From the NCBI GenBank assembly GCA_030649205.1, contig JAUSGE010000014.1, positions 28,717-92,716 of the forward strand: a stretch of 64,000 nt of DNA. Direction: 5' to 3'. The notes under the pieces were generated by a model. The model saw only the letters and a program-made list of their open reading frames with translations, was not told where the DNA came from and did not search any database. Each line of letters opens with the position of its first letter. Position 1 is the stretch's first letter. A program made the translations under genes and the position numbers. Shown piece after piece: positions 2,985-14,592 of the stretch. The stretch is from a bacterium (GTDB lineage Bacteria; Patescibacteriota; Patescibacteriia; Patescibacteriales; GWC2-42-12).

Positions 2985-4178
2985 CTACCGGCAATAAACC
3001 TTTTTGGTTTTTTCAATCATTTTTTCCAGGCCGAACTCCGCGGCGGCTTGGGTTTTAGCGTGCCGACCCAGTTTTTGGGCCAGCGTTTTATTATTTAAAA
3101 GCGTTTTGATTTTTTCCGCCAAATCTTCGGGATCGGCCGGCTTAACCAAGAGACCGGTTTGGCCGTTTTTAATCATTTCCGGAAGGCCGCCGACGGCTGT
3201 GGAAACAATCGGCAGACCGGCAGACATGGCTTCCAGGATGGAGTAAGGCAAGCCTTCTTTAACTGATGAGCAAACATAGATGTCCAGGGCCGGCAGCAAT
3301 TTGGCCGCCTGATTAATTGAGCCGGTTAAAATGAAATTATTTTGCAAATCATAGTTGGCGATTAGATATTCCAGACGGACTCGCTCCGAACCGTCGCCAA
3401 TAATAATAAATGTAATTGGCAATTGGCAATTGGCAATAATTTTATAAGCCGCTTCTATAAAATACTCAAAGCCTTTGGTTTTATAAAGATGGCCGATAGA
3501 GCCGATAAGTAAATTTCCAATTTTTCTGGCTTCGCCAGATCTGGCAAAGCCAGACAATTTCCAATTTCCAATTTTGGAAAGAATTATTTTTTTTGCCTCT
3601 TCTCTGCCGTAAAGATTTGTGGACGCCAGGCCGTTCTGGATAGTAACTAATTTTTCCGCCGGTGCGATGTTGTGTTTTAGGGCGGATTGCCGGTCAAATT
3701 CGGAGACGCAGATGATTTTGTCTTTAAAGCGGGCGGTGAATTTCTCCGCCTGCTTATAAAATAATTTCATGAACCAGGGCAAAGGCTCATTAAAGACCCA
3801 GCCGTGAACAGTGTAAAAAATTTTTGATTTTTGATTTTTGATTTTGGATTTGGCGAATAATGCCGCAATTGAGCCTAAGATGGAAATTTTAGAGCTGTTT
3901 AAATGGATAACGTCAGGTTGATAGTTTTTGATTAATTTTATGATTTCCATTAAAGCCAGAATGTCGTTAAACGGAGAAATATTGCGTTTAAGATGAGGGA
4001 TGATAAAATATTTTAGGTGATTTTTTTGTAAAATTTTAGCTAATTTTACATTATTTTTTCCCTCGCCCATGGCTATGGCAACCTGATATTCTGTTTTTAA
4101 ATTGTTAGCCAAATCAAAAACATAGCGCTGGGCGCCGCCGAATTCTGATTGAGTGATTAAGTAAAGAATCTTTCGCAT
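2985..4178 (-). CDS. glycosyltransferase family 4 (GT-B, retaining)
   Basis: C-terminal E-x7-E region (KEGLPYSILEAMSAGLPIVSTAVGGLPEMIKNGQTGLL). N-terminal GT4 acceptor-domain pattern (FGGAQRYVFDLANNL). Confidence 0.8.
   Translation of the reverse strand: MRKILYLITQSEFGGAQRYVFDLANNLKTEYQVAIAMGEGKNNVKLAKILQKNHLKYFIIPHLKRNISPFNDILALMEIIKLIKNYQPDVIHLNSSKISILGSIAALFAKSKIKNQKSKIFYTVHGWVFNEPLPWFMKLFYKQAEKFTARFKDKIICVSEFDRQSALKHNIAPAEKLVTIQNGLASTNLYGREEAKKIILSKIGNWKLSGFARSGEARKIGNLLIGSIGHLYKTKGFEYFIEAAYKIIANCQLPITFIIIGDGSERVRLEYLIANYDLQNNFILTGSINQAAKLLPALDIYVCSSVKEGLPYSILEAMSAGLPIVSTAVGGLPEMIKNGQTGLLVKPADPEDLAEKIKTLLNNKTLAQKLGRHAKTQAAAEFGLEKMIEKTKKVYCR
3414..3437. repeat. heptanucleotide tandem repeat (AATTGGC)x3 plus partial, inside the GT4 CDS
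   Basis: aattggcaattggcaattggcaat read directly; 21 nt, frame-preserving. Confidence 0.9.
3556..3576. repeat. heptanucleotide tandem repeat (AATTTCC)x2 plus degenerate copy, inside the GT4 CDS
   Basis: aatttccaatttccaattttgg; a similar aatttccaattttt occurs at 3511-3527. Confidence 0.8.
3821..3848. repeat. heptanucleotide tandem repeat (TTTTTGA)x3 plus degenerate TTTTGGA, inside the GT4 CDS
   Basis: tttttgatttttgatttttgattttgga; encodes KSKIKNQKSKI on the minus strand. Confidence 0.9.
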
Positions 4179-8822: not shown

Positions 8823-9764
8823 ATGACAATTTTAATAACCGGCGGAGCCGGCTTTCTAGGCTCGCATTTGTGTGGGCGGCTACTCTTGGCTGGCAATCGG
8901 GTTATTTGCCTGGATAATTTTTTTACCGGCAATAAAAAAAATATTGAGCCATGGCTCGGCAAGGAAAATTTCAGCTTGATTCAACATGATATTATTGAGC
9001 CGTTTTTTATTTCGGAAAAAATTGATCAGATTTATAATCTGGCTTGTCCGGCTTCGCCGGTTCATTATCAGGCTAATCCGATAAGAACGGTTAAGGCTAA
9101 CACCATCGGCGTGATCAATGTTCTGGGGCTGGCCAAAAAGCATAGCGCCAGAATTCTGCAGGCCTCAACTTCCGAAGTCTATGGCGATCCGGCCGAGCAT
9201 CCGCAAACGGAAAGCTATCGGGGCAACGTTAATTGCGCCGGCTCTCGGTCTTGTTACGACGAGGGCAAGCGCGTGGCCGAAACATTATTTTTTGATTATT
9301 GGCGCGAGCATAAAGCGGATATCAGGGTGGCAAGGATTTTTAACACTTACGGCCCGAATATGTCCGCCGATGACGGACGGGTAGTGTCTAATTTTATCAC
9401 GCAAGCGCTGAAAAATGATGACATAACCATTTACGGCGACGGCGGACAAACCAGAAGTTTTCAGTATGTTGACGATTTGATTGACGGTCTGATTAAGATG
9501 ATGGAAAATCAATCGGGCTTTATCGGGCCGGTGAATTTGGGCAATCCGGAAGAATTTACCATTAAGCGGCTGGCGGACGAAATTATAAAGCTAATTCCTG
9601 AAAGCAAAAGCAAAATTGTTTATAGAAGCCTGCCCGAGGATGATCCGCGGCAAAGAAAGCCGGACATCAGCCTGGCTAAGGAAAAATTGGGCTGGCAGCC
9701 GCGGGTTGAGCTGGAAGAAGGATTGAAAAAGACGATTGAATATTTTAGAAAAATAATAAAATGA
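8823..9764 (+). CDS. UDP-glucuronate decarboxylase (UDP-xylose synthase, UXS/ArnA-C-like)
   Basis: [44 protein letters not shown] and [22 protein letters not shown] are hallmark UXS motifs. Confidence 0.75.
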
Positions 9765-10915
9765 TGAATATTATAATTTTTTCCACCGCTTATCTGCCTT
9801 TTTGGGGCGGGGCTGAAATCGCGGTTAAAGAACTGACGGACAGGATCGGCGGCTGTGAATTTGACCTGATTACTGCCCGCTTGGACAGGCGCCTGCCGAA
9901 ATTTGAAAGATTGGGGCGGGTGAATGTTTATAGAGTTGGCCTGGGCTGGAGGCCGGACAAATTTTTACTGCCATTTTTAGGCTTATGGCAGGCGCTCCGC
10001 CTGGATAAATCGTGTCATTATCAGATTATTTTTTCTTTGATGGCCAGTCAGGCGTCAATCGCCGCGGCTTGGTTTAAAATGCTCTGTCCTGAAAAAAAAC
10101 TGCTGCTTAATCTGCAGGAAGGGGACGAGGAGGAGCATCTTAAAAGATACGCGCTGGGCAGTGATTGGCTGTACAATCGGCTGATCAAGCCTTGGCATTT
10201 GCTGGTTTTTAAAAAAGCGGATTTGGTGGTCGCCATCAGCGGCTATTTAAAACAGCGGGCGCAGGCGAGTGGCGTGAAATGTGAAATTGAGGTAGTACCG
10301 AACGGAGTGAACATGGCGAATTACGAATTACGAATTACGAATTACGAATTACGAAAAAAACTAGGGATCGGCGATAAGGAAAAAGTTGTTATTACCGTTT
10401 CCAGGCTGGTGAAAAAAAACGGGGTGGAGTATTTAATTGAAGCTATGCGCTATTTGCCGGAGAATGTTAAATTGATAATTATTGGAAGCGGTGAATTAGA
10501 ATTAAATCTAAAATCTAAAATCGCAAATCTAAAATTAGCTGGTCGGGTGCTAATGCTAGGTGAAATTGGAAATCAATCCATTCCTGAATACTTGTCCGCG
10601 GCCGATGTCTTCGTGCGGCCGTCTTTATCCGAGGGGCAGGGGATTTCTTTTTTGGAAGCCATGGCCGCGGGCGTGCCCATAATCGGCACGCCGGTCGGAG
10701 GCATTCCTGACTTTTTGCGCGATGGCGAGACCGGACTATTCTGTAAGGCAAACAATCCCCAAAGCATTGCTGAACAGGTGAAAGCATTATTGAACAATAA
10801 AGAGCTGGCCGATAAAATAACAGCCAGCGCGCTCCGGCTGGTGAAAGAGAAGTATGATTGGAACTTTATTTCCGAAAAATATGCAAAAATTTTCCATTGT
10901 TATTCCGGTATATAA
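9761..10915 (+). CDS. glycosyltransferase family 4
   Basis: E-x7-E region ([38 protein letters not shown]). Confidence 0.8.
10319..10353. repeat. heptanucleotide tandem repeat (AATTACG)x5 inside the GT4 CDS; 35 nt, so unit length is not a multiple of 3
   Basis: aattacg x5 read directly; encodes [12 protein letters not shown]. Confidence 0.9.
10504..10537. repeat. degenerate heptanucleotide tandem repeat (AAATCTA, ~5 units) inside the same GT4 CDS
   Basis: aaatcta aaatcta aaatcgc aaatcta aaatta; encodes [12 protein letters not shown]. Confidence 0.75.
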
Positions 10916-13143: not shown

Positions 13144-14592
13144 ATGAATAATAGATTATTATTAGTCAACCCGCCGTTTAATGTCGCCAAAGACAATTAC
13201 GACAGCTCGGTATCGGTCGGTTTATTAAGCCTGGCCACCTATTTGGACTGGCGCGGCGTGCCGGTAAAACTTATTGATGGCGTCCGGCAGAAAGATTTTT
13301 TAAAAATTTTTCAACAGGCAGCCGCCGCGAGCGACTTAATTTGTTTTTCCGTTATGACCATGCAGATACCGCAAGCGCTGGAATTATCCGAGCTGGCAAA
13401 AGAGATTAATCCGCAAAGCAAAATTATCTGGGGCGGCGCTCATCCGACTTTTTTCCCGGAACAAACAGCCAGGCATAGCCTGATTGACGCGGTGGTAATA
13501 GGCGATGGCGAGTATGTTATTTTTGATTTGTTTAACGAGCCGGACTGGCAAAAAGTTAACGGCATCGCTTATAAAAAGGGCGGGGAAGTCGTAATTAATT
13601 CTCGGCAAAAGCCGCTTGATCCTAAAACCATGCCGCTGTTTAACTGGGAACTTGAGCCCAGAGAAATACTGGAAAATTTGAGTTTAATCCCGACGCTCAC
13701 TTCCCGCGGCTGTCCTCATCGCTGCGCTTTCTGCATCAACGCCATTCTAAAAAATAGCTGGCGCGCCAGAACCGTTGATCAGGTATTGGAAGATTTAAAG
13801 ATCATAAGCGGCAAGGATTATTTCGCGGGCAAGCCTTTAAGATTTTGGGACGAAAATTTTTTTGTTGACATTAGGCGGGCTAAAGCCATAGTTAATGGCA
13901 TGATTGAGCGCGGGCTTGAGCGGCCCTGGGAGACGACCGTGCGGGCTAATTATATCAGCGCGGCCATGGTTGACGATAATTTTATGGGAAAAATGAAGCA
14001 GTCAGGCTGTTATCTTTTATCGTTCGGCGCCGAATCCGGCTCGCAAATTGTTTTGGATAAAATTAAAAAAGACATAACGCCCGAGCAGATTATTTATGCC
14101 GCCAAGCAATGCCTAAAGCACAAGATTATTCCGCAGTTTTCTTTTATGGTGGGGCTTCCCGGAGAATTAAAGCAAGACATGAAATTAACCGTAAAATTGA
14201 TAGATAAATTGATTAAGTTAAGCGACCAGGTGCAGATTTTAGGCCCGCAGGCGTTTCGGCCTTACCCCGGGTCGGAGTTATACCTGGAATGCGTAGCTTC
14301 GGGCTGGAGCGCTCCCGAAACGCTTCCGGCCTGGAGCCATTTGGTAAAAAATCAGCTGAATTATTTGCAAGTGAAGAACTTTAACTGGGTTAAGCACAAG
14401 GATTTTGTTGATTCCATGGAAGCCTACGTGCGCTTCGGCGCGCATAGTATTAAAAGCGCCATGGGGTCGTCGGTTAAAGCGAGAAAGTTTATTAAATTAG
14501 CTTTTGTTTTAATCTGCCAGCTAAGATGGAAATTAAAATTTTTCGCCTGGCCGTTTGAATTCAAACTGGCGAAAAAATTTGTGACGAAATGA
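13144..14592 (+). CDS. B12-binding domain radical SAM protein (class B)
   Basis: N-terminal Rossmann-like B12-binding region (LLLVNPPF..., GGAHPTFFP) followed by the TSRGCPHRCAFC cluster (Cx3Cx2C). Confidence 0.85.
   Translation: MNNRLLLVNPPFNVAKDNYDSSVSVGLLSLATYLDWRGVPVKLIDGVRQKDFLKIFQQAAAASDLICFSVMTMQIPQALELSELAKEINPQSKIIWGGAHPTFFPEQTARHSLIDAVVIGDGEYVIFDLFNEPDWQKVNGIAYKKGGEVVINSRQKPLDPKTMPLFNWELEPREILENLSLIPTLTSRGCPHRCAFCINAILKNSWRARTVDQVLEDLKIISGKDYFAGKPLRFWDENFFVDIRRAKAIVNGMIERGLERPWETTVRANYISAAMVDDNFMGKMKQSGCYLLSFGAESGSQIVLDKIKKDITPEQIIYAAKQCLKHKIIPQFSFMVGLPGELKQDMKLTVKLIDKLIKLSDQVQILGPQAFRPYPGSELYLECVASGWSAPETLPAWSHLVKNQLNYLQVKNFNWVKHKDFVDSMEAYVRFGAHSIKSAMGSSVKARKFIKLAFVLICQLRWKLKFFAWPFEFKLAKKFVTK

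Follow-up and report, generated by a model that had tools for sequence, protein, structure and literature searches.

In Escherichia coli K1, the phage CUS-3 polysialic-acid O-acetyltransferase gene neuO is ON only when the number of its repeat units is a multiple of three, 65.6% of genomes carry it OFF, and heterogeneity within a culture is measurable (PMC13001214). In Haemophilus influenzae, tetranucleotide tracts are found in lipooligosaccharide glycosyltransferases, and hmw1A/hmw2A have heptanucleotide tracts, one of which, (AATTTTG)14, is intragenic (PMC2651432). According to those parts of PMC4679880 and PMC4692102 that relay Mrazek 2007, heptanucleotides are the most abundant class of long simple sequence repeat (SSR) in many prokaryotes, and slippage over the polymerase footprint has been proposed to account for the period-7 bias. 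TAACTGA heptamers occur in Beggiatoaceae, Cyanobacteria, and Bacteroidetes, and the mechanism generating prokaryotic heptanucleotide SSRs is reported as unknown (PMC4692102, PMC4679880). Here, we scrutinized a heptanucleotide tract within a glycosyltransferase family 4 (GT4) gene of an uncultured bacterium belonging to the candidate phyla radiation (CPR, Patescibacteria), located on a 64-kb stretch of contig JAUSGE010000014.1 (assembly GCA_030649205.1; hereafter the window). CPR are ultrasmall, mostly episymbiotic bacteria, whose attachment to hosts and susceptibility to phages are probably governed by their surface glycans. The tract had been predicted, from the letters of the DNA, to be a contingency-like repeat. 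We give an even chance to a different reading, in which it is a translated, period-7-biased microsatellite that is tolerated in a weakly constrained linker, kept in register by selection, and latent as a low-frequency frameshift site. On the best reading of the data the tract is not a dedicated high-rate contingency locus, and any switching at it is putative.

The tract lies in an intact forward-strand open reading frame (ORF) of 384 aa (9761..10915), whose product was assigned to GT4 by matches to Pfam Glycos_transf_1 (PF00534; 1e-45, 155.9 bits against a cutoff of 26.4) and Glyco_transf_4 (PF13439; 7e-13), in agreement with the original prediction. The AlphaFold2 (AF2) model, with a predicted local distance difference test (pLDDT) score of 90.2 and a predicted template modeling (pTM) score of 0.87, comprised the two Rossmann-like domains of a GT-B fold, and Foldseek returned SPS (6kih), MshA (3c4q), and BshA (6n1x) at TM scores of 0.82 to 0.84 and E values of ~1e-23. 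In an alignment of 40 orthologs, both glutamates of the C-terminal E-x7-E motif (E291 and E299) were invariant, and the window enzyme had every family-invariant residue. Its protein is NCBI MDO8592360.1, encoded on a single 144-kb contig, and the gene is a widely conserved, syntenic ortholog in Patescibacteria, with at least 418 relatives confirmed among 600 candidate stretches from GTDB species genomes.

The heptamer tract itself (array 1) was recovered as (CGAATTA)x5.57, 39 nt on the forward strand at 10317..10355, with 100% matches and a Tandem Repeats Finder score of 78; the five AATTACG copies first noticed at 10319-10353 are another phase of it. Array 1 is in frame in an intact GT4 and encodes a weakly constrained inter-domain linker. 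It spans residues 186-199, is translated in all three unit phases to yield the heptapeptide NYELRIT, and was modeled as a short helix (185-188), a loop, and a helix (195-200), at pLDDT 79-87. A second array of degenerate AAATCTA units, likewise noticed beforehand, was found downstream in the same gene (array 2, (AAATCTA)x4.6, 10504..10535, forward strand), with 84% matches overall and 2.7 perfect copies at 10504-10522; with both arrays inside, the gene is in its ON register.

In silico, changes of -1, -2, +1, and +2 units in array 1 gave products of 198, 200, 207, and 205 aa, respectively, each ending at a stop 3 to 9 codons past the tract and lacking the donor-binding C-terminal domain, so the claim that gain or loss of one unit would shift the frame and truncate the enzyme held. 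Changes of three units kept the frame, with 7 aa gained or lost. A natural case was found in L020 (L-numbers denote related or metagenome loci and P-numbers orthologs of 9761..10915, L205 being P0007 and L206 being P0002), where a GT4 gene is interrupted precisely at (ATTTCAG)x3.1; with one unit added, the restored protein can be aligned over its full length (residues 1-359) to the L001 ortholog. The restored L020 gene also holds, at ~14400-14450, a 9-nt repeat encoding (KLV)x4. Across 81 sources, comprising the window and 80 related Patescibacteria loci (1.28 Mb for the loci, 1.35 Mb in total), 1 of 68 GT4 arrays was OFF (~1.5%); OFF alleles at GT4 heptamer arrays are present in nature and rare. 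Among the 306 GT4 genes counted in these sources, true internal frameshifts were restricted to the L020 array and to an A8 homopolymer in L008 (~15037), the other candidates of the frameshift screen being mostly gene boundaries or fusions, or scaffold N-gaps. Reading frame was kept in ~97% of cases, and 76 of the 95 arrays detected in the 81 sources lay in intact ORFs of at least 250 aa.

Several of these features are those of a true contingency locus, in which second-order selection maintains the tracts and slipped-strand mispairing turns the GT4 ON or OFF, diversifying the surface glycan in a CPR bacterium that lives as an episymbiont or is exposed to phages. The tract, whose unit length is not divisible by three, lies within a gene for surface glycan, a slip of one unit or two truncates the enzyme, L020 represents a natural one-unit OFF allele restored when one unit is added, and neuO offers a precedent for a coding heptanucleotide variable-number tandem repeat (PMC13001214). 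Nevertheless, we consider a contingency locus unlikely. GT4 arrays are short, having 2.5 to 5.6 units compared with 3 to 53 (mode 20) in neuO, and the single OFF array in 68 compares with 65.6% of neuO genomes. Furthermore, the tracts sit mid-gene, with multiple tracts per gene, and the host gene is a conserved syntenic ortholog rather than an accessory one.

Copy number was also equal among the relatives compared. Three loci of one lineage from different samples (L081, L082, and L083) carried (GAATTAC)x4.86 at the same site as array 1 in equal copy number, and the diverged ortholog P0007 had the same 5.57-unit array with 5 substitutions. Comparison of orthologs had originally been put forward as a check, and within each of these two sets unit numbers were equal. 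L081 and L083 were 99.3% identical over 7.1 kb, and their sole indel (L081 3551-3560) adjoined the 5' edge of the array, as did the only differences within the GT4 gene, which speaks for contingency, although the unit number was unchanged. Likewise in favor of contingency, the window tract was perfectly homogeneous despite diverged flanks, with 0 substitutions compared with ~3 expected from the flank divergence to P0007. As judged from the P0007 array, array perfection decays by point substitution.

No array-length variants, in frame or otherwise, were seen in alignments of three 90%-identity ortholog clusters, picked by member length from ten; apparently truncated cluster members (e.g., P0133) were cut by contig ends. 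When the flanks of 324 arrays were compared all-against-all for orthologous arrays differing in copy number, only L081, L082, and L083 were found, all equal. A metagenome scan for the flanks of array 1 separated by a variable gap of 18 to 48 nt gave 0 matches. Exact look-up of six predicted variants (±1, 2, and 3 units) found none in ~15 billion sequences; an exact look-up of the window protein itself likewise returned no record.

The distribution of heptamer arrays was determined across the 81 sources. In the window, where arrays were called at a period-7 match run of at least 11, 5 perfect arrays were observed against 0.11 expected from second-order Markov simulations (n=200; maximum 2), and all 5 fell in 2 of its 8 GT4 genes. 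Zero arrays were found in the window at periods 4 to 6 and 8 to 12 at the same threshold, and chance is excluded as the source of the window heptamer arrays. The 80 related loci contributed 90 perfect period-7 arrays, to give a total of 95, compared with 1 to 11 each at periods 4 to 6, 8 to 13, and 15, and 43 at period 14, a harmonic of 7. Heptamers dominate the short tandem repeats of Patescibacteria glycan loci, as they do in many other bacteria. Array 1 was the longest of the 95; among arrays of at least 30 nt, 16 of 17 had 4.3 to 4.9 units, the 39-nt window tract being the single longest.

The period-7 excess was present in both genic and non-genic DNA, and within genes it was concentrated in GT4. 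While 79 of the 95 arrays were inside called genes, 67 were in GT4 coding sequence, and 51 of the 59 host ORFs of at least 200 aa in the related loci were GT4 by Pfam. Array density was 18.1 per 100 kb in GT4 genes and 1.36 in other genes, a 13-fold difference, and 17 per 100 kb in non-genic DNA, to which the GT4 density is thus equivalent. At least one array was borne by 50 of 306 GT4 genes, 14 of them bearing several. Both this enrichment and a density in hot-spot segments above that of non-coding DNA add to the case for contingency, against which the same kind of array was found in essential genes of Patescibacteria, namely those encoding PheRS and MurB. In favor of an assembly or sequencing artefact, the source is a single metagenome-assembled genome (MAG) contig. 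We regard such an artefact as having practically no likelihood, since the same phenomenon was seen in ~50 independent MAGs produced by different assemblers, identical arrays recurred in contigs of different studies, and the frame was kept in ~97% of cases, unlike random repeat collapse. Assembly collapse as the origin of a 34-nt ceiling on array length was rejected by reasoning only, from the varied assemblers and the kept frame.

Heptamer arrays were not confined to Patescibacteria. An unbiased metagenome scan for (AATTACG)x3 returned >120 loci with a GC fraction of 0.30 to 0.67 and arrays of up to 122 nt, most of them outside GT4 genes, many intergenic, and largely from other phyla, which ruled out AATTACG arrays as a GT4-specific feature. 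The same loci contained 74 heptamer arrays of non-target units, compared with at most 7 arrays for any other non-harmonic period. Essential genes of other phyla also bore in-frame heptamer arrays, including those encoding ValRS (L138 1432-1459), LeuRS (L128), LigA (L093 2770-2801), and Mfd (L092); in the Bacteroidales ValRS (L138), LRITNYELR, encoded by (AATTACG)n, stands in place of the equal-length, nonrepetitive VAKFGVQFAM. Back-to-back arrays of differing heptamer units were observed at L131 1227-1358, L095 2034-2187, L202 395-562, and L141 623-751, most having ~2.5 to 5 units (~18 to 34 nt). G-rich heptamers of Xanthomonas and Nostoc (GGGNATC) show a clear four-unit preference (PMC4692102), and the sizes of these back-to-back arrays extend a preference for ~4 units to AT-rich units that are unable to form G-quadruplexes.

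Mapping of arrays onto the fold revealed that GT4 arrays fall into four or five homologous segments at the surface, each of which directly precedes a β-strand: ahead of (I/V)YTVHG in the N domain; following PNGV (site B, occupied by array 1); immediately ahead of the next strand; preceding the IIIGdG strand; and following GxG (site D, occupied by array 2). In the family alignment, conservation is lowest at these positions. Lag 7 was the best nucleotide autocorrelation lag in 41% of 81 orthologs at site B and 30% at site D, compared with 1 to 11% in controls. Units varied among orthologs (AATTACG, AATTTTC, TCAAAAG, and GAAATTG), with a limited repertoire recurring across sites and paralogs. The arrays did not lengthen the protein. 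The site D segment was 23 aa in 9 of 9 array-bearing and 68 of 72 array-free orthologs, and the site B segment had a median of 34 aa with and without an array. Arrays overwrite ancestral sequence with no insertion, and the possibility that they arose as +21-nt insertions was ruled out by these equal segment lengths.

The recurrence of related peptides at one site raises the possibility of a protein-level structural repeat, whereby the peptide is selected as a heptad-like element and DNA periodicity is a by-product of recent 21-nt duplication. Three units make 21 nt, or 7 aa, equal to two helical turns; NYELRIT-type peptides were encoded at site B in the distant orthologs P0018, P0021, P0023, and L035; and the same peptide occurs in the unrelated ValRS described above. 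We judge this to be very unlikely, however, as no protein constraint demands a perfect 7-nt rather than 21-nt periodicity, and other orthologs hold unlike units and peptides at site B (KFSIFNFQFSI and KFKVENLKFKI) or nonrepetitive sequence. In addition, part of the array 1 segment is a loop, pLDDT is lower there than anywhere else in the C-terminal domain, and period-7 arrays are equally common in non-coding DNA.

The window gene is a mosaic with a breakpoint that coincides with the start of array 1. Segment and sliding-window identities placed its flanks (9761-10306 and again from ~10607) nearest to the ortholog P0002, while the central 290-nt cassette at 10317..10606 (forward strand) was of different ancestry, being nearest to P0007, which has the same array. 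The two-breakpoint partition gave a maximum chi-square of 80.8, matched by 0 of 200 permutations, with the 5' breakpoint falling between 10306 and 10317, the first base of array 1, and the 3' breakpoint where the conserved catalytic core begins. In an exploratory family-wide analysis, whose comparison of N domain with central segment biases breakpoints toward the linker, nearest neighbors were discordant between the two regions in 27 of 81 orthologs, breakpoints concentrated at residues 170-190, and a breakpoint at residues 179-191 was found in 5 of 6 array-bearing compared with 4 of 16 array-free targets (Fisher p=0.023).

These data are consistent with arrays that mark or mediate exchange of GT4 modules, or that are repair scars at the junctions. 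A shared unit at the linker gives ~30 to 40 nt of perfect identity, and crossover there and in the catalytic core would replace either the central cassette or the donor-binding one. The recurrence of identical units in different GT4 paralogs and at different sites favors such exchange, and length neutrality is expected from homologous exchange. Against it, and in addition to the design bias of the exploratory analysis, the conserved PNGV codons just upstream are an equally possible crossover site, P0002 as the nearest backbone relative has a different unit (AATTTTC) at site B, and neither the heptameric nature of the arrays nor their presence at site D, in the N domain, and in single-copy essential genes is explained. 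We hold a role as recombination junctions to be doubtful. Equally doubtful, in our estimation, is a bolder form of the idea, in which arrays would be portable homology cassettes in GT4 linkers that serve the shuffling of acceptor-binding and donor-binding modules among diverged glycosyltransferases, the arrays being placed by length-neutral 7-nt overwriting (~30 to 40 nt) and low-rate ON/OFF frameshifting being a side effect. Were it true, it would represent repeat-based diversification of surface glycans in CPR together with a previously undescribed, length-neutral mutational process.

In the microsatellite reading that we favor, we infer the generating mechanism to be replication misalignment in a 7-nt register, a period-7 slippage bias that would both create and re-homogenize arrays. 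Arrays would then persist where the protein tolerates them, and purifying selection would keep them in register because single-unit slips are frameshifts. At most, the tract would serve as a switch of low frequency, probably an incidental one, and would contribute to local turnover of sequence. The original call of a contingency-like tract stands insofar as the repeat is frameshift-prone and of a kind concentrated in GT4; the contingency step is not supported, given at most 5.6 units, 1 of 68 arrays OFF, equal copy number in the relatives compared, NYELRIT-type peptides in distant orthologs, and arrays in essential genes.

Several observations weigh against the microsatellite reading. Tolerance alone leaves the 13-fold GT4 enrichment (18.1 compared with 1.36 per 100 kb) unexplained, and the hot-spot segments, ~16% of the GT4 gene, hold arrays several times denser than the 17 per 100 kb of non-genic DNA, by a rough estimate. 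Simple slippage predicts length change, but the arrays are length-neutral. Perfection of the window tract relative to P0007 hints at active homogenization or at selection for perfection. Finally, the coincidence of the array start with a recombination breakpoint has to be treated as that of two tolerated events.

Beyond array 1, the window contains arrays at further sites of the fold. Array 2 encodes a surface helix (247-256) after the GxG strand, and an added unit would introduce a stop because one frame of AAATCTA contains TAA; its site holds arrays in 9 orthologs. A second GT4 gene, of 397 aa on the reverse strand (2985..4178), has three further period-7 arrays, given here as coding-strand units. 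The first, (CAAAAAT)x4.6 at 3820..3851, encodes KSKIKNQKSKI directly before the N-domain strand FYTVHG, and the homologous site bears arrays in the relatives L019, L020, L002, and L066. The second, (GAAATTG)x2.9 at 3555..3574, encodes KIGNWKL in the inter-domain linker region, and the third, (GCCAATT)x3.4 at 3414..3437, encodes ANCQLPIT directly before the strand FIIIGDG.

Spacers between adjacent glycosyltransferase genes or just upstream of GT4 starts were also found to hold arrays (L048 13409-13433, L011 9949-9968, and L057 7407-7426), one of them 13 nt upstream of a start codon; a change in length of such arrays could affect translation initiation or gene fusion. A 16-nt, GC-rich perfect palindrome, TCCGCCAGCTGGCGGA, was observed within AT-rich sequence of three unrelated loci (L066 8292-8307, L067 3148-3163, and L206 1750-1765). 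It was in frame as SPPAGGF in both ortholog genes examined (L066 and L206), and in L206 it lies inside the site B AATTTTC array. Further GC-rich, hairpin-like in-frame inserts were found at site B in L031, at site D in L055 and L040, and in L207. Such inserts may represent a small element that is mobile or derived from repair.

As an SSR in a glycan gene, the tract on its own belongs to a known class and is unremarkable within it. What is new is the family-wide pattern, in which arrays are concentrated in GT4, occupy fixed sites, leave segment length unchanged, and are associated with breakpoints. A full-text literature search returned no report of heptamer repeats, of phase variation, or of a contingency system in Patescibacteria/CPR, the papers using the term "phase variation" not being about it in CPR. 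The pattern offers a testable handle on how the glycosyltransferase repertoire of CPR varies and evolves, and is relevant to the period-7 bias of bacterial microsatellites, which has long lacked an explanation. Should the tracts prove stable, it also cautions that finding a repeat in a glycan gene, even one whose unit length is not divisible by three, is insufficient for the label of contingency locus.

The Helicobacter pylori fucosyltransferases FutA and FutB similarly combine a heptad peptide with slippage-prone DNA, carrying DDLRVNY heptad repeats as well as poly-C tracts. They differ in that the heptad derives from a 21-nt repeat, switching proceeds via the homopolymers, and the enzymes belong to another glycosyltransferase family. 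With the long heptanucleotide SSRs of other prokaryotes (those of Mrazek, the cyanobacterial short tandemly repeated repetitive (STRR) sequences, GGGNATC, and TAACTGA), the CPR arrays share a period-7 excess, units that vary by locus, and a preference for about four units, as far as the accounts in PMC4692102 and PMC4679880 extend. Those repeats are, however, described as mainly intergenic and under-represented in ORFs, whereas here 79 of 95 arrays were in genes and 67 in GT4, at fixed positions and length-neutral. The SSR loci of H. influenzae resemble the window tract in having units that are not multiples of three, in or near surface-structure genes, with frameshifts at the tract (PMC2651432). 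In contrast, they have 13 to 38 units, vary among strains, and are mostly at the 5' end or in the promoter, in a host-adapted pathogen where phase variation has been demonstrated (PMC2651432). The closest likeness is to neuO, in which (AAGACTC)n is likewise a 7-nt unit that lies in a coding sequence, there for a surface-polysaccharide enzyme, translation of three units yields one heptapeptide, the protein is full length in one register of three, and a one-unit slip leads to OFF (PMC13001214). Unlike neuO, with its 3 to 53 units at the 5' end of the gene, the window tract has 5.6 units in a mid-gene structural linker, within a family that has several arrays per gene and ~1.5% of arrays OFF.

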